The notes beneath the pieces are model-generated. The model saw only the letters and a program-made list of their open reading frames with translations. It was not told the DNA's origin and made no database searches. Of a stretch of 64,000 nt of DNA, positions 11,613 to 63,074 are shown piece after piece. The position numbers and the translations under genes were made by a program. The DNA is taken from assembly GCA_965649115.1 (NCBI GenBank), contig CBFGJN010000001.1, forward strand, positions 568-64,567. Direction: 5' to 3'. Source of the stretch: a candidate division WOR-3 bacterium (GTDB lineage Bacteria; Hydrothermota; Hydrothermia; LBFQ01; DSFT01). Numbering within the stretch: position 1 is the first letter of the stretch; every line of letters starts with the position of its first letter.

Positions 11613-11680
11613 GATAGTAAGGAAAGTTATGCTTTAAAATTTTCAAAGTTAGCTATGCTAACTAAAAAGGAGGTAAGGGT

Positions 11681-18737: not shown

Positions 18738-18757
18738 AAAACCATTTATTTTTTAGC

Positions 18758-18774
18758 TTTAAAATTTTCAAAGT
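18758..18774 (+). promoter_or_regulatory. Promoter-like palindrome CTTTAAAATTTTCAAAG upstream of serS
   Basis: Ends 4 nt before the serS ATG. No Shine-Dalgarno sequence. Confidence 0.5.
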
Positions 18775-23674: not shown

Positions 23675-23689
23675 TTTAAAATTTTAAAG
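23675..23689. promoter_or_regulatory. Perfect palindrome TTTAAAATTTTAAAG shared by divergent tRNA-Gly and truB
   Basis: Lies 5 nt upstream of the tRNA 5' end on the minus strand and 9 nt upstream of the truB ATG on the plus strand. Confidence 0.55.
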
Positions 23690-26836: not shown

Positions 26837-26900
26837 ATCATTATAAGGACTAATATAGGGTAATCTGCCCCCCATAAAAACTATATTTTCTTAAAATTTT

Positions 26901-27857
26901 TTAGTCACTTATTTCCATTACAATTTTTCCTCTAACATGACCGCTTTCTAATATCTTATGAGCTTTTTTAACACTTTCAACACTAAATGGTAAAACCTCT
27001 GAAATTATTGGTTTCACTAATCCCCTTTCAATAACTTCCTTCATTTCTTCAAGTCTTTTACTTTCTCTTGTTAAGAAAATCCCATATAGAGTTATATTAT
27101 TTCTATAAAGCAATGATAAATCTCCTTTCGGTGGTAATATACAAGCAACCCTTCCAAAAGGTTTAATTACAGGTAAAACTCTTGAAACGATGTTATCACC
27201 TTGAATATCAAAAGCACAGTCAACCCCTTTATTTTCAGTTATTTCCATAACAATTTTATTTACATCGTCATTATAGTCAATAACATAATCTGCTCCAATT
27301 TGCTTTAAGAAGTCAAAATTTCTTGGACTACTTGTTGCAATTACTCTTGCAGAAATCATTTTAGCAAACTGAACAGCAAAAGAACCAACACCACCTGCTC
27401 CCGAATGAATAAGAATTGTCTCGTAAGGCCTTATATTTAACCTTCTAACAATTGCTTCCCAGGCTGTTCCTCCTGCTAAGGGAACAGCTGATGCTTCAAT
27501 GAATGACAAATTTTTTGGTTTTTTTGAAACAATGTTTGCTTTAACAACATTATATTCTGCATAAGCACCATTTGGATTATTATATATTTCAGGAGTGTAA
27601 TAAACTTCATCACCGACTTTAAAATCTTTAACACCTTCCCCAACTTCTTCAACAATTCCACTTACATCATAACCTATTATAATAGGTGGCTTTAATCCAG
27701 CCCAAGTTCCATTTATTCTTATTTTATAATCAACAGGGTTAAAAGCAACTGCCTTAACCTTCACAAGTATTTCGCCAGCATTAGGTTTTGGTTTTTTCAT
27801 TTCAGTCATTTCAAAGTTTTCAACATCTCCAAACTCTTTAAGAACGATCGCACGCAT
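26901..27857 (-). CDS. Zinc-type alcohol dehydrogenase-like / NADPH:quinone oxidoreductase (MDR family)
   Basis: GroES-like N-terminal domain and Rossmann GxGxxG (GAGGVGSFAVQ) block. Confidence 0.85.
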   Translation of the reverse strand: MRAIVLKEFGDVENFEMTEMKKPKPNAGEILVKVKAVAFNPVDYKIRINGTWAGLKPPIIIGYDVSGIVEEVGEGVKDFKVGDEVYYTPEIYNNPNGAYAEYNVVKANIVSKKPKNLSFIEASAVPLAGGTAWEAIVRRLNIRPYETILIHSGAGGVGSFAVQFAKMISARVIATSSPRNFDFLKQIGADYVIDYNDDVNKIVMEITENKGVDCAFDIQGDNIVSRVLPVIKPFGRVACILPPKGDLSLLYRNNITLYGIFLTRESKRLEEMKEVIERGLVKPIISEVLPFSVESVKKAHKILESGHVRGKIVMEISD

Positions 27858-27896
27858 AGTTTGAAAATTTTAAAGCTTTTTAGAGACTTTCAATTG

Positions 27897-28032
27897 CTGT
27901 GTCTAGCCTAAAAATAAGGCTTCGCCTTATAAATGCCCATTTTTCGGCTATGGGAGGGCTTAAATTCAATAATTTCATTAAAAATTTTACAAGTTCTTGA
28001 TCGTCAAGGACTTAACACTATTTATTGGACAA
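27897..28032 (+). repeat. Compact repeat copy. Its 3' end overlaps the C-terminal codons of ORF 27987-28556.
   Basis: GCTGTGTCTAGCC … AAGGCTTCGCCTT (hairpin with swapped stem) … TTTTCGGCTATGGGAGGG … TCAAGGACTTAACACTATTTATTGGACAA. Confidence 0.7.
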
Positions 28033-28556
28033 TTGTATAATTGCAAATTTCTATTTATAATTTCTTTTAAATTTTTCAAAGTTTGACTTTTTTCAAAATT
28101 AGTGAAAATAATTTCTAAAACTTGTTCAAATTTAAATTCAGATTTGAGTTCCTTCAATTTGCCATAATTAGTTCCTTTTATTTCTTTATATATTTCATTT
28201 ACAAAACTTTCAATTGCTTTTGGTTTGACAATCCAAACTTGATGTTTGGGATTTTGTTTCTTTTTAAAAATTATCATTAAATCATTTTCGCATGAATTAT
28301 AATCTTCATGGAGTTTTAATTTTTTAGCGAGTTTATCAAAATGTTGTTCATTATCATAATCAAAAACTGCAATTATTAGTTTATTTTTATTATTATTTTT
28401 AATTCTTTTACAATAAGTTTTTATAACTCCATCATAACCACCTGTTTCTACTTCATCTGAGCAGTGTAAAACATCACAAACAGCATTTAGTTTTAAAAAA
28501 TCTCGTAATTTCTTAAAAAATGAGTAATCATTATTACATTCAACAATAAAAATCAT
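27987..28556 (-). CDS. Small TOPRIM-like protein (DUF4276/DUF4435-like), partner of the AAA_21 ATPase
   Basis: N-terminal IFIVEC (conserved Glu) followed by IIAVFDYDNE (DxD) about 60 aa later, the TOPRIM arrangement. Start overlaps the ATPase stop (ATGA). Confidence 0.5.
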   Translation of the reverse strand: MIFIVECNNDYSFFKKLRDFLKLNAVCDVLHCSDEVETGGYDGVIKTYCKRIKNNNKNKLIIAVFDYDNEQHFDKLAKKLKLHEDYNSCENDLMIIFKKKQNPKHQVWIVKPKAIESFVNEIYKEIKGTNYGKLKELKSEFKFEQVLEIIFTNFEKSQTLKNLKEIINRNLQLYNCPINSVKSLTIKNL

Positions 28557-29647
28557 TTTTTACTGAAATATTCAGTATTAAGGAAGGGGTCTAAATCTTC
28601 TTCTTGATAAATTTTTTCAGTTATATCAATAATTTTTGTTTCTTCATTCTCAAATTTAAATAGAAGAACTGCAACATCTTTATTTTCCTTACCTTCTCTA
28701 ACAAGTTTTCTAAATAGATAAGGATTATGAGTTGAAATGAAAAATTGGTTTTCACTATAATAAATATCTTTTGCCATTTCAAAAATAAATGGAGGGAAAA
28801 CTTTACTTTCAGGTTCTTCAAAAATTAAAGTTGAATTTTCTGATGAATGAATTGCTGATAAATAAAAGATGTAGTTCCTCAAAGTATCTGCTAACAATAG
28901 ATAAGAAAGTCTTATAATTTTCCCTTCCTTTTTCTTAACGACATAGTACTCCTTATCATCTACATCTTCGTAAATTTCATACCCTATTTTTTGAAGATAA
29001 AGTCTAAATCTCTCATAAACTTCTCTGTTTCTATTTAAAATTCCAAATATATTTTTGCCATAAGGTGGAATAAGGGAAGGATAATAAAAATTGTATCTTT
29101 CTTTTTCTTCTAAATCCAAATGATAATATCTTTTTACAGAATTTAAGGGTTTTGGTACTTCAATTTCACCAAGGTATTCAATTCCAAAATTTCCTTTATA
29201 AAATTTAAATTCCAAATTTTTTGAAATGGAAAAACTATAAAAAATTTTTCCTTTCATTTTTTCTGTGAGTTCTAAAAGATTTTTTACTTGTTCCAATTCT
29301 TCTTCAAATTTTAATTTGTCTTGATACCTTATTAGAAATCCGCAAACTGATTCAACATAATCAAAAATAATAAGTGAAAATTCTTTGTTAATATCAATAT
29401 AAATTTTTTCTTGAATGTTCTTAAAATAAAAAAGTTCATAGGGGGAGTTAATACGAATAATTTTTTTGTCAATTAACATTGGTGATTTCGTTAATAAAAA
29501 ATTTATAGGGTTTAAAATAGTTAAGGCTTCTAAAAAGTTGCTTTTCCCTGAGTTTGGACTTCCAATAATTAGATTTATTCTTCTTATATTTTCCAACTTA
29601 ACATCTTTAAGGGTTTTGAAATTTCTTATACTGATTTCTCTAATCAT
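28553..29647 (-). CDS. AAA_21/ABC-type ATPase of the OLD/PARIS-AriA-like defense family
   Basis: N-terminal ISIRNFKTLKDVKLENIRRINLIIGSPNSGKSNFLEAL (SMC-like Walker A), a LIFEEPESKVFP Walker B/D-loop, and an STHNPYL H-loop. Confidence 0.65.
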   Translation of the reverse strand: MIREISIRNFKTLKDVKLENIRRINLIIGSPNSGKSNFLEALTILNPINFLLTKSPMLIDKKIIRINSPYELFYFKNIQEKIYIDINKEFSLIIFDYVESVCGFLIRYQDKLKFEEELEQVKNLLELTEKMKGKIFYSFSISKNLEFKFYKGNFGIEYLGEIEVPKPLNSVKRYYHLDLEEKERYNFYYPSLIPPYGKNIFGILNRNREVYERFRLYLQKIGYEIYEDVDDKEYYVVKKKEGKIIRLSYLLLADTLRNYIFYLSAIHSSENSTLIFEEPESKVFPPFIFEMAKDIYYSENQFFISTHNPYLFRKLVREGKENKDVAVLLFKFENEETKIIDITEKIYQEEDLDPFLNTEYFSKK

Positions 29648-29682
29648 ATTTAAAATTTTAAAGGAAAAAATTTTATTTATCT

Positions 29683-29800
29683 GCTGTGTCTAGGAATTCT
29701 AAAATCATTTATTTTTCACCCTTTAAATAAAGCTTCGCCCTAATAAAATCAATAATCTCAAAAAAGTTTTTATAAGTTTGTGTCTAATAATTAATACCCC
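29683..29800 (+). repeat. Compact or degenerate repeat copy plus a fragment
   Basis: GCTGTGTCTAGGAATTCTAAAATCATTTATTTTTCACCC … AAAGCTTCGCCCT … AAAATCAATAATC, then GTTTGTGTCTAATAATTAATACCCCCC. Confidence 0.6.
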
Positions 29801-31562: not shown

Positions 31563-31648
31563 TTTTAAAATTTTAAAGGATAGAGCTTAATTTATGAAAA
31601 ATTTAATGGGGGCGCCAGGAAGCTTAAATATCCTTTAAAATTTTAATT
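31563..31648. promoter_or_regulatory. Divergent pair of promoter-like palindromes (tRNA-Leu on the minus strand, kelch gene on the plus strand)
   Basis: TTTTAAAATTTTAAAGG at 31563-31579 lies 4 nt from the tRNA 5' end. CCTTTAAAATTTTAATT at 31632-31648 abuts the ATG at 31649. Confidence 0.55.
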
Positions 31649-32551
31649 ATGAGGAAGCCTTCTATATTATTAATTTTCGTTATATCCTGTGCTAAAAGTA
31701 GTATGGAGAAATTTTGGCAAGATGGGAATCCTTTACCTTACAGCGTTGCAAATTTTGGATGGACATCAGACTTAAATGGTTTTTATATATTTGGAGGAGA
31801 TACAAGCTTTAATGATTATTCAACTTCAAGAATGATTATTTATAATAATAATTCTTATCAAATTTCTGAAACTTTAATAGCTCCTATTCACTTAAAAAAT
31901 TCCTGTATCGCTATTTATAATAATAAAGTTTATATTTTTGGGGGTTATATTGCTAATAGTCCGACGAATTATTTCTTTTCTTATGATTTAAATACAAAAA
32001 CTTATCAAGATTTAGGAAATTTGCCTTTTGATGCAGGAGGATGTTTTGCTCTTACTTTGAATAATAAAATTTACATTATTGTTGGTGCAAATACTTCTTC
32101 GTTTTATGAATTCAATCCTACAAATAATTCGTTTAATCAAAAGGCATCATTAAAATATAGTAGAGATGGGGCTTGTGCAGTTGTTTTAAATGGACAAATT
32201 TATGTCATTGGAGGAGGAAATGATAAGCTTGAGGCTTATGATATTACAACGAACGCTTGGATTGAAAAGAAAAATTTAGATATTAGTTTAAAAAATCATA
32301 CATGTTCAGTTTTAGATAATAATGTATATGTTTTTGGAGGTCAAACATCTTCAAATACTATTTCTTCAAAGGTTTTTAAATACGATCCTAATAGTGATAC
32401 TTGGACATATATAACTGATATGAAAACACCAAGAAAAGGGCTTGGTTCAGCAGTAATAGGAAATGAAATTTATATATTTGGTGGTATTGATGATAACAAT
32501 AACTTTACAAATAAAGTAGAGATATTTAAGGTTTCTCCTATTGTTTTTTAA
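31649..32551 (+). CDS. Kelch-repeat beta-propeller lipoprotein
   Basis: Lipoprotein signal (VISCAKSS). Six repeats of the xYIFGG/IYVIGG type. Confidence 0.7.
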   Translation: MRKPSILLIFVISCAKSSMEKFWQDGNPLPYSVANFGWTSDLNGFYIFGGDTSFNDYSTSRMIIYNNNSYQISETLIAPIHLKNSCIAIYNNKVYIFGGYIANSPTNYFFSYDLNTKTYQDLGNLPFDAGGCFALTLNNKIYIIVGANTSSFYEFNPTNNSFNQKASLKYSRDGACAVVLNGQIYVIGGGNDKLEAYDITTNAWIEKKNLDISLKNHTCSVLDNNVYVFGGQTSSNTISSKVFKYDPNSDTWTYITDMKTPRKGLGSAVIGNEIYIFGGIDDNNNFTNKVEIFKVSPIVF

Positions 32552-33632
32552 TTCAGTTTTAAATTTAATTAATATCTTACTTGGTTTTTTAAATTTGAAA
32601 GTTCTTTTTACTTTTTTAGATTTAAAAACATTAGATAATTTCTTTTTAATTCAGTCAATATCACTTTCAATTTCAAGTATATTTGTTGTTAGTTTTGAAA
32701 CAACTTTTCAAAATTTCATTCCAAAGATGAATGATAAAGATAGTAAAATTTTACTTACAAAATCATTAATTTTGACTTTTTGTTTTTATATAATTTTTTC
32801 CATTTTTAATTTTAAAATTTTTCTTTTTTTCCCCTATGCTATTTTTCCAATTTTTTTAAGTTATCTTTATGCTATTAAAAAATTTACAATCTCTAATATA
32901 ATAAATGCCCTTTCAATTATTTCAACAACTTTTTTCATTTTCCTTATCAAACCAAAAGAAATAAAATTAGTTATTCTTATATATTTCTTCGTTTATTTAG
33001 TGTTTTGCTTATTTTTGATTGTCTTAATAAGACCACCTTTGACTTTTAAAAAAGAAATTATAATTCAAATAAAAGATTATTATAAATTCTCATTCCTTTC
33101 ATCACTAACAAGCCCTATATATAGATATTTAGATAGATTTATTCTTGGATTTTTTGGGAATGTTGGTGATGTTTCAGGATTTGTGCTAATCAGAAGAATT
33201 GATAATTTCATTAGGCAAGTTTTAAATGCACCATTATCAATAGCGCTTGTAAATATAAGTTCAAATCCAAATTATTTCAATAATTTTTTTAGAAAGTATT
33301 TAATTTTTTCATTTTTTCTCTTTATTGTTGAATTAGTTTTAGGATATTTTATTCTTCTCATTATTGGAGGTAAAATTTTTTTAAAATTTTATTTTTCATT
33401 AATTTTGTTCTCTTTTTCATTTCTAATTTCTGCTATTTTTTCAGTTTTCATATTAAAAGAAAGAGTTCTTAACAATCCAAAACCATTTTTCATTTATAAT
33501 ATCTCATTTGTAGTTTTTTACTTTCTTTTCTCTATAATTTTATTTAAATTTTTTAATTATAATGGTATTGCATTAGCTTTTCTTTTAAGCACAGTAATTT
33601 CAAGTTTAATTAGTATGAGCTTTAAAATTTAA
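32541..33632 (+). CDS. Polytopic membrane protein (possible polysaccharide flippase-like)
   Basis: About 10 predicted TM helices. No specific motif. Confidence 0.35.
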   Translation: MFFNSVLNLINILLGFLNLKVLFTFLDLKTLDNFFLIQSISLSISSIFVVSFETTFQNFIPKMNDKDSKILLTKSLILTFCFYIIFSIFNFKIFLFFPYAIFPIFLSYLYAIKKFTISNIINALSIISTTFFIFLIKPKEIKLVILIYFFVYLVFCLFLIVLIRPPLTFKKEIIIQIKDYYKFSFLSSLTSPIYRYLDRFILGFFGNVGDVSGFVLIRRIDNFIRQVLNAPLSIALVNISSNPNYFNNFFRKYLIFSFFLFIVELVLGYFILLIIGGKIFLKFYFSLILFSFSFLISAIFSVFILKERVLNNPKPFFIYNISFVVFYFLFSIILFKFFNYNGIALAFLLSTVISSLISMSFKI

Positions 33633-38138: not shown

Positions 38139-38190
38139 ATTGAAAATTTTAAAGGGTAAATAATTTACTTTTCAGCTAAATCGGTTTTTT

Positions 38191-47984: not shown

Positions 47985-48527
47985 AATAAGTTATTTTCGA
48001 GTGGGTGGGGAAAATAAAGTTGCTTTGTTCAATAAAAATTTTAAGAAAACTATTGATTTTAGCGGGTTTTTAAGGGGGGCAAAGCCCCCCATAACCGAAA
48101 TAGACACAGCAAATATATTTTGCTTTGTCCAGTAATTATTGTCAATCACTTGATAATCAATAACTTATAAAATTTTTAGGGAAATTATAGATTTCATTAG
48201 GGGGATTTTAGGGGGGCGAAGTCCCCCACAGCCTAAAAATGGGCATTTTAAAGCCGAAAGCTTTTATTTAGGGTGAGCGAGGAAAAATAGTAAAATAAAT
48301 AATTTTAGAATTATTAGACACAGCAAATATATTTAACTTTGTCTAGTAATTGGTGTTAAGTTATTGATAATCAATAATTTGTGAAAACTTAATAAAATTA
48401 TTGTCTTTATGGGGGTTTTAAGGGGGGCGAAGCCCCCCATAGCCGAAATATGGGTATTTTAAAGCCGAAGGCTTAATTTTAGGGTGGGTGGGAAAAATAA
48501 ATGGTTTTAGAATTACTAGACACAGCA
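47985..48527 (-). repeat. Array of three reverse-orientation repeat units plus a leading fragment, separated by a constant AATATATTT(T/A) spacer
   Basis: Units approximately 48011-48111, 48122-48325 and 48336-48527. Each starts (T)GCTTTGTYYARTAA and ends AGACACAGCA. The GGGGGGC(A/G)AAG(C/T)CCCCC hairpin is present in all. Confidence 0.8.
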
Positions 48528-48561
48528 AATATATTTATCAATTCTACTTTAAAATTTCATT

Positions 48562-57262: not shown

Positions 57263-58660
57263 TTATATTTTTTCTTCTTCAAGATTAATAAATTTTAAAT
57301 TTTTAGATTTTATTTCTTTTAATATACTTCCAAGTGATTTTAGTGTGTTTTTTCTTTCGTGAAATAGAATTATTGAACCTCCTCTTAATTGGTTAATTAC
57401 TTTAAAATAAATTCCATTTGGACTTAAAAGTTTCCAATCTTCTGAATCATCGTTCCATAAAACTACTTTCATATTTAAGTCTCTTATTACTGAATCCATA
57501 GTGTAGGAATATCTTCCATAAGGTGGTCTAAAAAGGAAGGGTTTAAAACCTGTTAATTTCTCTATTAATTTATTTGTAGTATCAATCTCTTTTCTTATCG
57601 TTTTATAATCTTTAAAAATTAAAACAGGTGAGTGTGAATATGAATGATTTCCAATTATGTGTCCCCTCTTATAAATTTCTAAAACTTCATTTGGATATTT
57701 TTCTATATTCTTTCCAACTAGAAAGAAAACAGCTTTTATTTGGTATTTATCTAAGGTATCAAGTATTTGTTTTGTCCATGGACTTGGTCCATCATCAAAT
57801 GTTATTAAAACTTCGTCTTTGCTATTTAATTGATATATAATATATGGCTTTTTAAGTAATTTTTTGTTTAGTTGAGCATGGACTTCAAAGTACGAAAATG
57901 TAATTAGTATAATAGCAAAAACTACAAATGCTAAAATGTTTCTTCTTTTTATCTCTCTAATTGGTGGTAAGTTCTTCATAATAGGTTTTTTAAAAACATT
58001 TAAAAAGATGTAATTTAGTAAAATATATACAAATAAAGATTTAAAAAGACCCATTTTAAATCTCCTACTTGATGTAATAACAGGATTGTTAATGGTTTTT
58101 ACTTTGCCTATTTTCTTTAAACGATTGCCAAGGTCAATATCTTCGCCTGTTATAAAATTTAAATTAAATCCACCCACTTTCAAAAATGCTGATTTTTTAA
58201 CTGCAAAATTACAACCTGCAAAACTATTATTTCCTTTTATCATTCTTTCAATTTTTAAGACAATTGGTGTAAAAATTTTAAAAATTAATGATGTAAAATT
58301 AAAGACCTCTTTAAATTTTACTTCTCCATTTAAAGCAATTATATTTTCATCTTTTTTAAATTCCTCAACATATTTACTTATCCAATTTCTTGGAACAATA
58401 GTGTCAGCATCTGTTGATAAAATAATATCCCCACTTGCATTTAAAAATCCTGTTTGTCTTGCAAAGGCAGTTCCTTTTCTATTTTCAACAATTACTTTAA
58501 CAGGATAATTTTTTAAAATTTCTAATGTTCTATCAGTAGAACCATTATCAACAACAATAATTTCATATTCTTCTTCATAATCTTGATTTAGCAAAGATTC
58601 TATACAATTTTTTATATATTTTTCTTCATTATAAACAGGAATAACGATAGAAACTTTCAT
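57263..58660 (-). CDS. Bifunctional GT2 glycosyltransferase / polysaccharide deacetylase (PgaC-PgaB-like fusion)
   Basis: N-terminal VSIVIPVYNEE…DADT GT2 motifs, central TM helices, and a C-terminal NodB domain (ITFDDGP, GNHSYSH). The start at 58660 (MKVSIVIP) is preferred over the longer ORF that runs into the repeat. Confidence 0.75.
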   Translation of the reverse strand: MKVSIVIPVYNEEKYIKNCIESLLNQDYEEEYEIIVVDNGSTDRTLEILKNYPVKVIVENRKGTAFARQTGFLNASGDIILSTDADTIVPRNWISKYVEEFKKDENIIALNGEVKFKEVFNFTSLIFKIFTPIVLKIERMIKGNNSFAGCNFAVKKSAFLKVGGFNLNFITGEDIDLGNRLKKIGKVKTINNPVITSSRRFKMGLFKSLFVYILLNYIFLNVFKKPIMKNLPPIREIKRRNILAFVVFAIILITFSYFEVHAQLNKKLLKKPYIIYQLNSKDEVLITFDDGPSPWTKQILDTLDKYQIKAVFFLVGKNIEKYPNEVLEIYKRGHIIGNHSYSHSPVLIFKDYKTIRKEIDTTNKLIEKLTGFKPFLFRPPYGRYSYTMDSVIRDLNMKVVLWNDDSEDWKLLSPNGIYFKVINQLRGGSIILFHERKNTLKSLGSILKEIKSKNLKFINLEEEKI

Positions 58661-58699
58661 AATATATAAAATTTTAAAGTTTAATGTTGATTTTTTTGT

Positions 58700-58903
58700 G
58701 CCTTGTCCAATAATTCTGGAAATATAATTATTTCTATATTTTCCCACCCGCCCTAAAAATAAGCCTTCGGCTTTAAAAAACCCCATCTTTTGCTATGGGG
58801 GGCTCTGCCCCCCATAAAGTGCCCCCATTATTTCAAGTATTTCAATTAATACTTAATAAGTAGTTGATTATCAATCACTTAGCAATAATTATTGGACAAA
58901 GCA
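58700..58903 (+). repeat. Full-length repeat unit
   Basis: GCCTTGTCCAATAATTCTGG … CCCACCCGCCC … AAGCCTTCGGCTT … GGGGGGCTCTGCCCCCC … TTGATTATCAATCA … AATTATTGGACAAAGCA. Preceded by ATTTTTTTGT. Confidence 0.8.
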
Positions 58904-58913
58904 AGAGTTAGTT

Positions 58914-59116
58914 GCTGTGTCTAAGAATTCTGAAAGTATTTATTTTTCTTATTTTGCCCACCCGCCCTGAAATAAAGGCTACGCCTTTAAAATGCCCATT
59001 TTTCGGCTGTGGGGGGCTCCGCCCCCCATTAGATCCCCCATAAAATCAATAGTTTTATTGAAATTTTCGTAAGTCATTGATAATCAAGGATTTAACAATA
59101 ATTATTGGACAAAGCA
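58914..59116 (+). repeat. Full-length repeat unit (tandem to the previous one)
   Basis: GCTGTGTCTAAGAATTCTGAAA … CCCACCCGCCC … AAAGGCTACGCCTTT (stem-swapped hairpin) … GGGGGGCTCCGCCCCCC … AATTATTGGACAAAGCA. Followed by ATTTTTTTGT. Confidence 0.8.
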
Positions 59117-59126
59117 ATTTTTTTGT

Positions 59127-59200
59127 GCTGTGTCCAGTAATTCTGAAATATAAAATAATTCTTTTTCCCCCGAAAAATCAAGAGTTTTAATTAACAATAT
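59127..59200 (+). repeat. 5' fragment of a third tandem repeat unit
   Basis: GCTGTGTCCAGTAATTCTGAAATATAAAATAATTC. Confidence 0.6.
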
Positions 59201-59207
59201 TTTTCAT

Positions 59208-59225
59208 GCTTTAAAATTTTCAAAC
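59208..59225 (+). promoter_or_regulatory. Promoter-like palindrome GCTTTAAAATTTTCAAAC immediately upstream of the riboswitch
   Basis: The riboswitch P1 stem begins 1-2 nt after the motif. Confidence 0.55.
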
Positions 59226-59226
59226 A

Positions 59227-59366
59227 TGCAGGCGACAGGGAAGAGGGGTGAAATTCCCCCGCTGTCCCAGCAGCCGTGATGGGCATAAAAATTGCCCCTG
59301 AAAGCCACTGCCGAAAGGTGGGAAGGCTCAGGGGTTTTTAGCCCTAAGCCGGAAGACCTGCCTGCA
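59227..59366 (+). promoter_or_regulatory. Cobalamin (AdoCbl) riboswitch
   Basis: P1 TGCAGGC…GCCTGCA. Conserved AGGGAAGAGGGGTGAAATTCCCC, GCCACTG and GGGAAGGC elements. B12 box AAGCCGGAAGACCTGCC. A downstream hairpin CCCTTCCTG…CAGGAAGGGG can sequester the GGAGG RBS. Confidence 0.85.
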
Positions 59367-60841
59367 TGCTTCAAAACCCTTCCTGCTGGGGTTCAGGAAG
59401 GGGGGAGGTTGTAAGCTTGCTTGATACTATAATTGTTATAGATACTTTTAGATTTTTTTATAAAATTGATAGTTTAAGTAAATTTTCAGATTTTAGGGAA
59501 GTTTTTAGACAGAATAGTTCTATTATTTTTAGAGAACTTTCTAATAGGATTGTAGTTTCAATAAGAGGACTTGAAGATAAGCAAAATGAAGTTTATTTAA
59601 ATGGTGTAAAATTGAATAATCCAATTTGGGGATTTTTTTATGCTAATGCTTTACCTTTAAATTTAATAAGTTCTTCAAACGTTATTCTGAATAATTATAG
59701 AGTAAATTTTGAAATTTCAGGGGAGAAAGAAATTGGATTTTTTATTGGCTCATATAATAAATTTTCAATGTACTATAAAAATGGAACTTTTGGAATTGAA
59801 AGAACATATAATGAAAATAATTACAGATATTGGGATAGTTTTAATAGGGAATATCAAAGAAAAAATAATTTTGAAGATAAAATTGGAGGATTTTTAAATT
59901 TTAAGAATTTAAGCATCATTTTTTATGATGGAATTTTTGGAATGCCATTAAGAGGATATGGTAATGAAGGAAGCGATTTTGAAATTTATAAAGGTTTAAT
60001 TTTAAGTTATAAAAATCATTATTTTAATTATCAATTCTATCGCTATAATTATGAAAAACCCTATGAAAGCTATATATTGGATCTCAATTATTTCCAAGTA
60101 GTTTTTTCAAATATGGAAGAATTTCACAAAAGATTTATTTTCAAAATGCCTTTCAAATATCTTGGTTATTTTTCAATAGTTTTAGATGAAAACAATTTCA
60201 AATTTGACTATTTAATTTCAAAAGCTTTTAGGTATCATAATTTTATTTTTGAATTAGCACTAAAAAGAAGAATTCCAAATTTTTCTGAATTATATTATAA
60301 AAGTAATTATGCAATTGGAAATCAAAGCTTAACCCCTGAAAATTTTTACACATTACAAATGAAATATAAACTTTTTGACATTTTTATAACTTATATTCAA
60401 AATCCTATTTTATGGCTACCTGATGAAAATTATTGGAAAGCTCAAAACTTAAATTATTTATTTTTATATGGTTTTGAAATGGATTATAATTATAGATTTT
60501 TAGAGTTTTCAGTTTCTTATATCAAAAATAAGCTTTCAAATAACATGATATTGCCATATAGACCAAATTTAACAATTTCAGCCTCTATAAATTACAATTT
60601 TAGCTCTTTCTTGAAAGATAAATTAGTTTTTATATATTATTCAAAAAGACCAAGCTATTATTATCCTTCAAGTTTTTATTTAGAACCAATTTTAATAATA
60701 GATTATTATAAATTCTTTGAGTTTAAAAAGTTTTTCTTCTACATTTACTTTAAAAATCTTTTAAATAAATCTTATGAGTTTATAAAAGGCTATCCTATGG
60801 AAAGCTTTTCTTTAAACATAAAAGGAGGTTTAAAGTGGTAG
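59366..60841 (+). CDS. TonB-dependent outer-membrane receptor, BtuB-like (start uncertain; no recognisable signal peptide)
   Basis: The TonB-box-like DTIIVIDTFRF aligns with BtuB DTLVVTANRF. Plug motif VSIRGLEDKQNEVYLNGVKLNN. C-terminal aromatic (…GGLKW). A candidate TTG start at 59417 lies 8 nt after GGAGG. Confidence 0.6.
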   Translation: MLQNPSCWGSGRGEVVSLLDTIIVIDTFRFFYKIDSLSKFSDFREVFRQNSSIIFRELSNRIVVSIRGLEDKQNEVYLNGVKLNNPIWGFFYANALPLNLISSSNVILNNYRVNFEISGEKEIGFFIGSYNKFSMYYKNGTFGIERTYNENNYRYWDSFNREYQRKNNFEDKIGGFLNFKNLSIIFYDGIFGMPLRGYGNEGSDFEIYKGLILSYKNHYFNYQFYRYNYEKPYESYILDLNYFQVVFSNMEEFHKRFIFKMPFKYLGYFSIVLDENNFKFDYLISKAFRYHNFIFELALKRRIPNFSELYYKSNYAIGNQSLTPENFYTLQMKYKLFDIFITYIQNPILWLPDENYWKAQNLNYLFLYGFEMDYNYRFLEFSVSYIKNKLSNNMILPYRPNLTISASINYNFSSFLKDKLVFIYYSKRPSYYYPSSFYLEPILIIDYYKFFEFKKFFFYIYFKNLLNKSYEFIKGYPMESFSLNIKGGLKW

Positions 60842-61920
60842 CTTGGATAGATACAATATACTTATTTTCACACGGAGATGGTCAATGGTATGGTCAAAAT
60901 AACTATCCTTATATTGTTTATAATTCTCCACCTAATTCTGCTACACCTACTAATCCTTCACTTGATGTTTTATCGCTTGGAAAATATGGATTTATTATTT
61001 TTGGATTTAAAAATAAATTTACAAATTCGGAGATAAGAGTTTTTGAAAATGCTTTTATAACATCTACAAATCCTGACACGCAAGTTTTTGCTGAACCTGG
61101 ACTTCTTTACTATTCTAAAAATGGAAAATTATTTTTTATTTATCCTTTTGATACAAGCTCAAATAACATATACTATTGGAAAGGTCTTGCTGGAATAAAA
61201 CCAACGAATTATGGAGCGAATACAAATGATCCGAATGTTTGGATGGGTGATAAATTTCTATTTAATGATACTGTAAGATTTGTTTTAATAGCGGATTGGA
61301 TAGAGAAGTGTAAAAGTCAATTGTGTTCAGGTTTTGATTTAGATGCAACTGCTTGTTTAAATTGTCAAAACGATAATTATAATTATCAATTGCCTGAAAT
61401 TATTTATGCAGTAGGAATTGGTGGAGATACAAATGATTGGGAAAATAAATTAAAATTTGTAGATGGCAATTGTTTAAATATAGGTGAAAATGGGATTGTT
61501 ATTTTTAGAAATTTAAATATCATTAACAAAAATGGAATTGATTTTAAAATTAAAACAAATAAACCTGTCAGAATATATGGTGGAAATGGAAAACTGAATT
61601 TTATAAATGCTTTTTATAGTGATTCAAGAGTGGATAGTATTGGTGAAATAGATTCACTAAAATCAAGACAAATTTTAAGTCCATTTATTGTTTCTGATAC
61701 TATTAATATAATTGCTATAAGAAGCAAAGAAAATGCTTGTATTGATGGAATTGAGATTTATAACGCAAAATTAAATGAAGAAATAAAAAATTATGATATT
61801 GTAGAAATTTATAATTTAAGTGGTAAAAGGGTTTTTTATGGAAAGTATATGGATTTTAAATCAAAGGGTGTTTTTATAATAAGAAAAGGGAAACTTATCA
61901 AAAAGGAGGTAAAAAAATGA
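60835..61920 (+). CDS. Hypothetical cell-surface protein with a T9SS-like C-terminal domain, co-transcribed with the BtuB-like gene
   Basis: Overlaps the btuB-like stop. C-terminus IVEIYNLSGKRVFYGKYMDFKSKGVFIIRKGKLIKK. Confidence 0.4.
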   Translation: MVAWIDTIYLFSHGDGQWYGQNNYPYIVYNSPPNSATPTNPSLDVLSLGKYGFIIFGFKNKFTNSEIRVFENAFITSTNPDTQVFAEPGLLYYSKNGKLFFIYPFDTSSNNIYYWKGLAGIKPTNYGANTNDPNVWMGDKFLFNDTVRFVLIADWIEKCKSQLCSGFDLDATACLNCQNDNYNYQLPEIIYAVGIGGDTNDWENKLKFVDGNCLNIGENGIVIFRNLNIINKNGIDFKIKTNKPVRIYGGNGKLNFINAFYSDSRVDSIGEIDSLKSRQILSPFIVSDTINIIAIRSKENACIDGIEIYNAKLNEEIKNYDIVEIYNLSGKRVFYGKYMDFKSKGVFIIRKGKLIKKEVKK

Positions 61921-63074
61921 TAAACCTTATAGTTAGCTATGGAGCGTTTGTTATTGGTCAAAGTACAAAACAAGTTTATATTATATATCAAAATCAGATT
62001 GTTGATAGCTTTCCAACTGGAACAAGAGCTGTTCCAAATTATCTAATATCTTTTGGTGATACTTTTCTTATTGTGAATTCTGGTGGATTTTCAGATAATG
62101 GCTCAATTGCTTTTATAAAGAATAAAAACATCATATATGAACTTTTACTTCCAAGCTTTATGAATCCTATGGAAGCTGTTAAGGTAAACAACAAAATATA
62201 TTTTACTGATTTTGGAGATACTTTTAATGATAAAATTTACATTATTCAAAATTACCAAATTATTGATTCAATAAAGGTTTATAAAAGACCAAGTTCAATA
62301 GCTTATTGTTTTGGCTATATCTTTTCTACTTCAACGGGGATAAATAGTGATTATAGTTATGACGATTCGTCATTTGTTCATAAAATAAATCCTTCAAACA
62401 ATAGTGTTTTGAACTTAAAGCTTCGCTCAAATGCTAATGGTGTAAAATGTGATAATAATTATGTTTATGTAATGACAAGTGGAACTTATGATAATAATTT
62501 CAATCCTTTAAACAATTCAACAATTTATAAAATAAATCCACTGACATTTCAAATTATTGATTCTACAAAAAATTTAGAAAATGTTTCAAGTTTTGCTGTT
62601 GGTAATAATTATATTCTTGTTGGTGTTTGGAAATTTGATAGTGTAAAAGTTTATAAAATAAATAAAAATAATTTTAGTTTAATTGATAGTTTCAAATTAA
62701 ATTATGGTGGCCTTGGAGGGATTGATTTTGATGGTCAATTTTTTAAATTTTCACTTGGTGGATTTACAGGTGGTCCAAATGTAATTTATGTTTTAAAAGA
62801 AAGTGATAATACTTCATATTATTTTATTCATCATAATAGTGATGTTGGAAGTGGATTTATTAAAGGATTTATTAGTTTATCTAATTACGAGGTCGTTAAA
62901 AATAAAGTTGGAAACGGAATTATTCATTTCTCAAAAATTCAAGAAATCTATGTTTATGATATTTCAGGAAGAAAAATCCTTCATTTAAGAGATAATAAGT
63001 TAAATTTAAGAAGTTTAAATAATGGCGTTTATATTATTAAAACTGATGAAGGATATTTGAAAATTTTAAAATAA
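61917..63074 (+). CDS. Beta-propeller-like surface protein with a T9SS C-terminal domain (possible BtuG-like B12-binding protein)
   Basis: Overlapping ATGA start. Repeated (Y/F)x(T/V)D-type blade motifs (IYFTDFGD, YVYVMTSG). C-terminus NGVYIIKTDEGYLKILK. Confidence 0.4.
   Translation: MINLIVSYGAFVIGQSTKQVYIIYQNQIVDSFPTGTRAVPNYLISFGDTFLIVNSGGFSDNGSIAFIKNKNIIYELLLPSFMNPMEAVKVNNKIYFTDFGDTFNDKIYIIQNYQIIDSIKVYKRPSSIAYCFGYIFSTSTGINSDYSYDDSSFVHKINPSNNSVLNLKLRSNANGVKCDNNYVYVMTSGTYDNNFNPLNNSTIYKINPLTFQIIDSTKNLENVSSFAVGNNYILVGVWKFDSVKVYKINKNNFSLIDSFKLNYGGLGGIDFDGQFFKFSLGGFTGGPNVIYVLKESDNTSYYFIHHNSDVGSGFIKGFISLSNYEVVKNKVGNGIIHFSKIQEIYVYDISGRKILHLRDNKLNLRSLNNGVYIIKTDEGYLKILK

Follow-up and report, generated by a model that had tools for sequence, protein, structure and literature searches.

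A repeat copy at the 3' end of a DUF3226-family gene in a candidate division WOR-3 bacterium: a MITE-like element supplies a short, variable protein tail

In the 64,000-nt window that we analysed (the whole stretch of DNA, from contig CBFGJN010000001.1 of a candidate division WOR-3 bacterium), the gene for a small protein on the minus strand ends inside a copy of an interspersed repeat. This raises the question of whether the element gave the protein a new C-terminus and stop codon when it inserted, or whether the gene and the repeat were joined in another way. The first-pass annotation had stated that approximately 15 codons and the stop of the ORF lie inside a repeat copy at 27897-28032, and this was true. 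The overlap of repeat and ORF comprises 46 nt, namely the TAA at 27987-27989, the 14 codons 176-189 and one base of codon 175, and the earlier coordinates were right to within 2 nt, since the copy occupies 27895-28032. The 14 codons read CPINSVKSLTIKNL and span 27990-28031, so that the repeat-encoded tail with its TAA covers 27987..28031 on the minus strand. This is the largest 3' overlap of an ORF with the repeat in the window.

The copy at this locus (27895..28032, plus strand) is degenerate and was defined by an nhmmer match, by alignment of the copies and by an exact terminal box. An nhmmer profile of eight further copies from the window matched 27907-28032 at E=7.6e-29. The 12-nt terminal box TGCTGTGTCTAG, which is exact at 27895-27906, carries the copy leftward to 27895, and the other end, ...TTATTGGACAA, lies at 28032. 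About 43 nt are deleted internally, just past the TGCTGTGTC end, the central G/C hairpin is also missing, and the gene-side TIR lacks its last 4 nt (AGCA). A simple terminator scan found no terminator for the DUF3226 gene inside the repeat, and the idea that the copy serves as the terminator of the gene was dropped. ORF 61917-63074, considered as a second fusion, was also rejected, because the 14 nt that it seems to share with a repeat fragment reflect no more than a blurred edge of the profile match.

We then characterised the repeat family. Repeat finding and nhmmer (28 nhmmer matches) gave about 25-28 copies or fragments in the 64-kb window, nearly all of them intergenic. The unit is about 205-214 nt long, with a 9-bp spacer between units. 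In its TIRs, TGCTGTGTCYAATAATT pairs with AATTATTGGACAAAGCA, and 11 terminal pairs are retained in 6-7 of 8 copies. The repeat contains G/C-rich internal hairpins, whereas the genome is otherwise 73% A+T (the window is 27% G+C). Double changes were present in 4 of the 33 predicted pairs of these hairpins and the covariation term was about 0, with few informative copies. Direct repeats of 9 bp, taken as TSDs, flank several copies: TTAAAGATT at the copy at 2572, ATTACTTGA at the copy at 294, AAATATATT, present three times, at the tandem copies 48101-48532 (48325/48527), and ATTTTTTTG around the dimer of 58699 and 58913 (58699-59124), which it flanks as a unit. At copies c24828 and c11612 no TSD was seen, and the copy at the DUF3226 gene has only an arguable 4-nt remnant. 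By its size (below about 500 bp), TIRs, TSDs and copy number, the repeat behaves as a MITE-like element.

The repeat has no coding capacity: read from either end, all frames stop within 0-46 codons. From the gene-side end every frame stops within 0-22 codons, and any gene fusion to this end therefore stays short. No TIR pair at IS-like spacing enclosing a transposase was found in the window, and ORF 57263-58786, tried as a transposase, was rejected as it encodes a glycosyltransferase/deacetylase. No Rfam family covers the repeat. Repeat-pattern scans of the GTDB collection (185,579 species genomes) gave no true match, no autonomous element and no further orthologous loci; of the two scans, one returned 0 matches and the next 5 chance matches in Pseudomonas and Achromobacter. 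A metagenome scan returned only three solitary terminal boxes of 23-27 nt. No prior description of the family was found in Rfam, in the genome and metagenome scans or in the literature.

The gene that carries the tail (27987..28556, minus strand) encodes a 189-aa protein, which the ORF list, Pfam PF11536 and an alignment of partner proteins place in the DUF3226 family. The NCBI annotation contains the same 189-aa product as MEO0223477.1, a DUF3226 domain-containing protein from a candidate division WOR-3 MAG. The PF11536 match reached 30.4 bits against a cut-off of 27 (E=4.2e-7) and aligned residues 2-140 with profile positions 3-147 of 208; a close relative, P0003, also matched DUF3226. In a seven-sequence alignment with ATPase-partner proteins, E6, C7, D10, H31, D66, D68 and P112 were invariant. 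The upstream operon partner is an AAA_15/AAA_21 ATPase of 364 aa (28553..29647, minus strand), identified by Pfam and PADLOC. The ATPase stop and the small-gene start share 4 nt, and the two genes are translationally coupled.

PADLOC matched the ATPase to AbiLi at 2.3e-19 (residues 1-357), to AriA at 1e-11 and to PDC-M38A at 8.4e-15 (N-terminus) and 7.4e-11 (full length). For the small protein, it gave a weak, partial match to PDC-M38B (5.2e-4, residues 2-121), and neither PADLOC nor Pfam gave an AbiLii, AriB or DUF4435 match. The cassette does not classify as PARIS, as an AriB/DUF4435 TOPRIM partner was not found. Its layout, an AAA_15/AAA_21 ATPase followed by a coupled small protein with an N-terminal acidic E...DxD pattern, is like that of AbiL, PARIS AriA/AriB and PDC-M38, and ATPase plus DUF3226 pairings appear in AbiL- and PDC-M38-like candidate defence systems. 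Unlike in PARIS and AbiL, however, the partner matches DUF3226, not DUF4435 (AriB) or AbiLii, and the PDC-M38B match is weak and partial (5e-4). The genomic context, with murE and ADH genes, is not a defence island, and a defence role is a candidate one only. The earlier label "TOPRIM-like" was not confirmed. The E6...D66-x-D68 pattern is present and is kept across the partner family, but Pfam gave no Toprim or DUF4435 match for the small protein, PDB sequence and profile searches found nothing, and Foldseek against the PDB returned nothing at E<0.1 (AriB of PARIS came at E of about 0.75, with a model of mean pLDDT only 65).

Where the conserved protein ends was addressed by the ortholog alignment that the first-pass annotation had proposed. 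Single-sequence searches (15 billion proteins; phmmer against 1.8 billion representatives) found no repeat-free close ortholog and returned one 90% cluster of 3 sequences, the protein's own. We therefore reached remote relatives via the neighbouring ATPase, by collecting the small proteins whose genes come directly after those of homologous AAA_15 ATPases in other phyla. The ATPase has more than 400 homologs at about 30% identity, and four homologous ATPases that were looked up led to five distinct loci (L003, L005, L007, L008 and L009). At all five, the gene after that for the ATPase overlaps or abuts it, and its product is a protein of 151-167 aa that aligns full-length. A profile search yielded 42 family members, mostly of 148-179 aa and most commonly 156 aa, with two short ones of 97-116 aa.

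The results showed that these distant partners align from residue 1 to about residues 169-175 and then stop, and that CPINSVKSLTIKNL is absent from them. With hhalign, the three close sequences matched 25 members at E=5e-5 over query residues 1-169, reaching the template end. The C-termini of the 25 aligned members fall at residues 166-180 (median about 172; one outlier at 188), and none of the 25 has the repeat-encoded residues. This homology is remote (13-24% identity, hhalign probability 67%), so the native end is mapped only to within a few residues. The small protein is the most divergent member of the family: the near-invariant IDEDP is FDYDN here, PRLEEW is PKAIESF, and about 9 residues around a conserved LH are missing. 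In the AlphaFold model the last helix spans residues 158-175 and ends at the repeat boundary, while residues 176-189 have pLDDT <50; since the tail has no alignment depth, low pLDDT is expected there, and the helix end is the informative part. Codons 172-175 (QLYN; 28032..28043, minus strand) probably encode native C-terminal residues that are not repeat-derived, judging from the junction comparison, the reconstruction described below and the last helix. By alignment and model, the conserved protein is thus complete to about residue 171-175, and the repeat adds a tail and removes nothing recognisable. The suggestion that the family can remodel coding sequence is borne out on a minor scale: the protein gains about 14 aa, and no loss of conserved sequence was detected.

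In the three close relatives, the sequences part exactly at the junction with the repeat. The proteins are identical or nearly so up to L171 and then end in QLYNCPINSVKSLTIKNL, QLYNCPINSVK and SNDYQ, with all stops in the repeat. Their lengths are 189, 182 and 175 aa, and the remainder of the proteins is 92-100% identical. Three different repeat-encoded ends on near-identical proteins indicate that the tail is not conserved, and it looks unconstrained from this comparison.

The 182-aa version comes from L001 (GCA_965648865.1), which differs from the window by 56 mismatches in 6,415 nt, without gaps (99.13% identity). The repeat contains 8 differences in 137 nt, compared with 0 in the remaining 524 nt of the gene and 1 in the 1,091 nt of the ATPase gene; all compared sequences are metagenome assemblies, and the hairpin differences could partly reflect reads from other repeat copies. 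Seven of the 8 lie within 27990-28009, and 6 fall in an imperfect hairpin, AAGTCCTTGA-CGA-TCAAGAACTT (27991..28013, minus strand). Two of the hairpin differences turn TCC into TGA in L001 and so produce the earlier stop. On one reading, the window and L001 may each have repaired the same consensus stem mismatch on opposite arms, one with C-G and the other with A-T. Patchy gene conversion, quasi-palindrome template switching and mis-assignment of reads during assembly are possible sources of these changes. Elsewhere, 41 of the 56 differences cluster at window positions 31843-33017 (L001 110-1284), in genes for Kelch/beta-propeller-type proteins, with a single difference in each of the adjacent murE and ATPase genes; local recombination or diversifying variation could explain the cluster.

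The 175-aa version comes from L002 (ENA ERZ1669417), with 96.6% DNA identity over the cassette and a small protein that is 92% identical. This protein ends ...NRNLSNDYQ, and the QLYN codons are deleted. A repeat copy directly follows the gene in the same orientation, the junction is 14 nt deeper in the gene, and translation enters the element in another frame. Comparison of the window with L002 gave a dN/dS of 0.37 for the small gene (18 substitutions) and 0.52 for the ATPase (23 substitutions), values that are compatible with weak purifying selection but are not decisive; function of the gene is not firmly supported by them. The contigs also differ downstream. The zinc-type ADH gene at 26901-27857 is present in the window and in L001 and missing from L002, where a single, more complete repeat copy (L002 1340-1560) joins the same flanks in its place. 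In the window, the ADH gene lies between the copy at 27895-28032 and an apparent 35-nt repeat fragment at about 26867-26900, noticed by eye. This pattern points to gain or loss of the gene mediated by repeats.

The position of the copy is related to a promoter-like motif. The motif CTTTAAAATTTTMAA, which has a palindromic core and contains TAAAAT, occurs 22 times in the window, compared with 1.4 occurrences expected. Its sites include 2539-2553, 11632-11646, 18757-18771, 23675-23689, 27861-27875, 29649-29663, 31564-31578, 38140-38154 and 59209-59223, among others. ATG starts, tRNA 5' ends and a cobalamin riboswitch follow the motif at a distance of 1-10 nt, and because of this position we read it as a probable -10 region of promoters whose transcripts are leaderless or nearly so. 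At the locus studied here, the site is CTTTAAAATTTTCAA (27861..27875, minus strand); it precedes the ADH ATG by 3 nt and is separated from the repeat end by 19 nt.

Of the 13 outermost TGCTGTGTC ends, 10 are spaced exactly 18-19 nt from a promoter motif, and the end at 27895 is one of these. The outer TGCTGTGTC ends listed are at 2572, 11612, 18737, 24828, 27895, 29682, 48527, 52174, 58699 and 63372. The sequence between the TGCTGTGTC end and the motif is not conserved, and at 2572 this spacer includes the TSD, so it is no part of the element. These results suggest that the family inserts at a fixed distance upstream of promoters. With its family-typical 19-nt spacing, the copy at the DUF3226 gene would have had its position set by the ADH promoter. 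The DUF3226 gene itself stops directly upstream of that promoter.

Based on these findings, we consider it likely that a MITE-like insertion between the cassette and the ADH promoter, next to a native protein end at about residue 175, was followed by a deletion at the junction and left an apparently unconstrained tail. The element lies between the two-gene ATPase/DUF3226 cassette and the ADH promoter, 19 nt upstream of the motif. As there was almost no intergenic space there, its other end abuts the last DUF3226 codons. The native protein would have ended at about residue 175 with ...IINRNLQLYN. The insertion would have duplicated the target ATTGAAAGT (in the sense of the gene), and the 9-mer at 27886..27894 (minus strand), by the TGCTGTGTC end, is the proposed surviving copy of this TSD in our reconstruction. 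Joined to the gene, ATTGAAAGT gives an in-frame TGA. The empty site would thus read ...TACAATTGAAAGTCTCTAAAAAGCTTTAAAATTTTCAA, with LQLYN followed by TGA; the TGA within the target would have been the native stop, and the protein would at first have been unchanged. The intact insertion can be rebuilt as the gene (...TACA) plus ATTGAAAGT plus TGCTTTGTCC, giving a junction of ...TACAATTGAAAGT-TGCTTTGTCC and a 175-aa ORF that would end LQLYN-TGA.

From this state, a 12-nt deletion between TTG microhomologies would have removed the stop and the TIR tip and fused the ORF to the element; the frame now continues from codon 175 into the TIR for 14 codons, up to the first in-frame TAA. A single 12-nt TTG-flanked deletion from the reconstructed state gave the observed junction base for base. 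The L002 junction was reproduced by deleting either 26 nt from the intact state or 14 nt from that of the window. Later changes would comprise the further junction deletion in L002 (175 aa) and the hairpin substitutions in L001 (182 aa). The deletion model would account together for the missing TIR tip, the missing TSD, the promoter spacing and the position of the native end. What remains of the gene-side TSD is ATTG, and three of these bases could equally belong to the TIR. We found neither an empty-site relative nor one in which the junction is intact, and both the native stop and the order of events are therefore reconstructed. Of the first proposal, that the element supplied a new C-terminus and stop on insertion, the supply of tail and stop by the repeat is retained; the insertion itself does not appear to have replaced the stop, and a small, later junction deletion is the probable cause.

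A direct hit, in which insertion into the last codons itself replaced the C-terminus and stop and the TIR tip and TSD were later lost by point decay, is an unlikely account of this junction. The stop and 14 codons do lie in the element, the copy, with its two internal deletions, is old and decayed enough for its TSD to have eroded, and MITE-ORF fusions born at integration have been described for other families (PMC10969869). However, point decay requires that all four terminal TIR bases and five of the nine TSD bases were mutated while the rest of the copy stayed about 85% like the consensus, whereas a one-step 12-nt deletion fits exactly and leaves an in-frame TGA where the family proteins end. 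L002 shows, in addition, that deletions do happen at this junction. The join could also be an assembly artefact, with the contig misjoined within the repeat and the true 3' end of the gene elsewhere. Both the window and every sequence compared with it come from metagenome assemblies, the repeat is multi-copy and about one sequencing read long, and the clustered hairpin differences resemble the pattern left by mis-mapped reads. We nevertheless regard a misjoin as very improbable, because the same gene-repeat join is present in three independent assemblies (the NCBI MAG, also in Logan; GCA_965648865.1; and ERZ1669417), the downstream ADH gene is present in two of them with a different downstream arrangement in the third, and the family proteins end at this position anyway.

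The altered IDEDP and PRLEEW motifs and the roughly 9 missing residues of this most divergent family member, the dN/dS values of 0.37 and 0.52 from few substitutions and the degenerate repeats on both sides of the cassette are also what a decaying cassette might look like, in which the gene is an inactive remnant and the fusion a symptom of erosion. Yet both ORFs are intact in three lineages, the sole indel is in frame, E6, D66, D68, H31 and P112 are conserved, and the 4-nt start/stop overlap with the ATPase is kept; we judge decay to be quite unlikely. [quoted passage not shown] The family-profile match (E=7.6e-29), the 25 other copies in intergenic positions, and a tail that is absent from all distant homologs and unconserved even at 99% strain identity leave this origin with a negligible chance. 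The preferred reading thus remains insertion beside a native end followed by a small deletion.

Similar fusions are already known, and the present case is a further example. [quoted passage not shown] The order of events proposed for the DUF3226 gene, a stop-before-element state followed by an indel fusion, would be like that at enhC. In contrast to the Coxiella case, the organism and the sequence and size of the element are different and the extension is 14 aa; the pre-fusion state was observed in a sister strain of Coxiella, whereas here it is reconstructed. The RPE of Rickettsia, ERIC, BOX and the MITEs of Anabaena are small non-autonomous repeats with translational fusions to ORFs (PMC10969869). 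Like RPE, ERIC and BOX, the WOR-3 repeat is small and non-autonomous and has become part of an ORF. RPE, however, lie in frame inside genes and encode a conserved peptide, whereas the repeat studied here affects only the gene end, its peptide is unconserved and the frames differ between relatives. For this repeat family and this phylum, we found no earlier description of such fusions.

The consequence for the protein is minor and probably neutral. For annotation, the last 14 residues of MEO0223477.1 should be treated as transposon-derived and variable; they are not part of the DUF3226 family and are unfit for profiles. The locus offers a clean, datable small case in which a mobile repeat and a microdeletion lead to a new protein end. 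The gene is a defence candidate from an uncultured phylum, and three allelic outcomes occur among close relatives.

Of broader value is the repeat family, with its density, 9-bp duplications, arrays and fixed promoter spacing, and the most interesting lead is the constancy of the 18-19-nt spacing, along with the tandem arrays in which one 9-bp spacer is shared. We tentatively suggest, at somewhat less than an even chance, a targeting rule by which the TGCTGTGTC end is placed 18-19 nt from CTTTAAAATTTTMAA and re-insertion into the same 9-bp target builds arrays, with the gene fusion as a side effect. If this were true, an element directed to a promoter directly after a preceding gene, as at the ADH gene, would unavoidably hit the stop codon of that gene, and the family would systematically rewrite gene ends, and perhaps promoter-upstream regions, in the WOR-3 lineage.

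Head-to-tail repeat arrays were observed at 48032-48532, 2572-2935 and 58699-59168. Within an array, one and the same 9-mer recurs as the spacer (AAATATATT is present three times, TTAAAGATT two times), and one dimer has the internal spacer AGAGTTAGT and is flanked as a unit by ATTTTTTTG. The arrays suggest repeated insertion into one target, or transposition of dimers. A cobalamin riboswitch (59213-59379, 85.8 bits) directly follows a three-copy array and a promoter motif. A second degenerate copy in the same orientation lies at 29678-29800, just upstream of the ATPase/DUF3226 cassette and 18 nt from the promoter motif of the cassette; together with the copy at 27895-28032, it brackets the cassette with repeats. 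The longest ORF for the glycosyltransferase-2/polysaccharide deacetylase (57263-58786, minus strand) starts 92 nt inside copy c58699 (58695-58786). The first Pfam domain of this protein begins at residue 45, and there is a promoter motif at 58665-58679; the true start therefore probably lies downstream of the repeat.

Finally, a TGCTGTGTCYAATAATTCTAAAA box without the rest of the element was found in three unrelated A+T-rich metagenome contigs, at L015 175-231, L016 1184-1210 and L017 1822-1850. These boxes could be solitary ends of the element, or the box itself could serve a separate function. In L015 and L016 the box lies near a similar promoter-like motif, 19 and 22 nt away, respectively.
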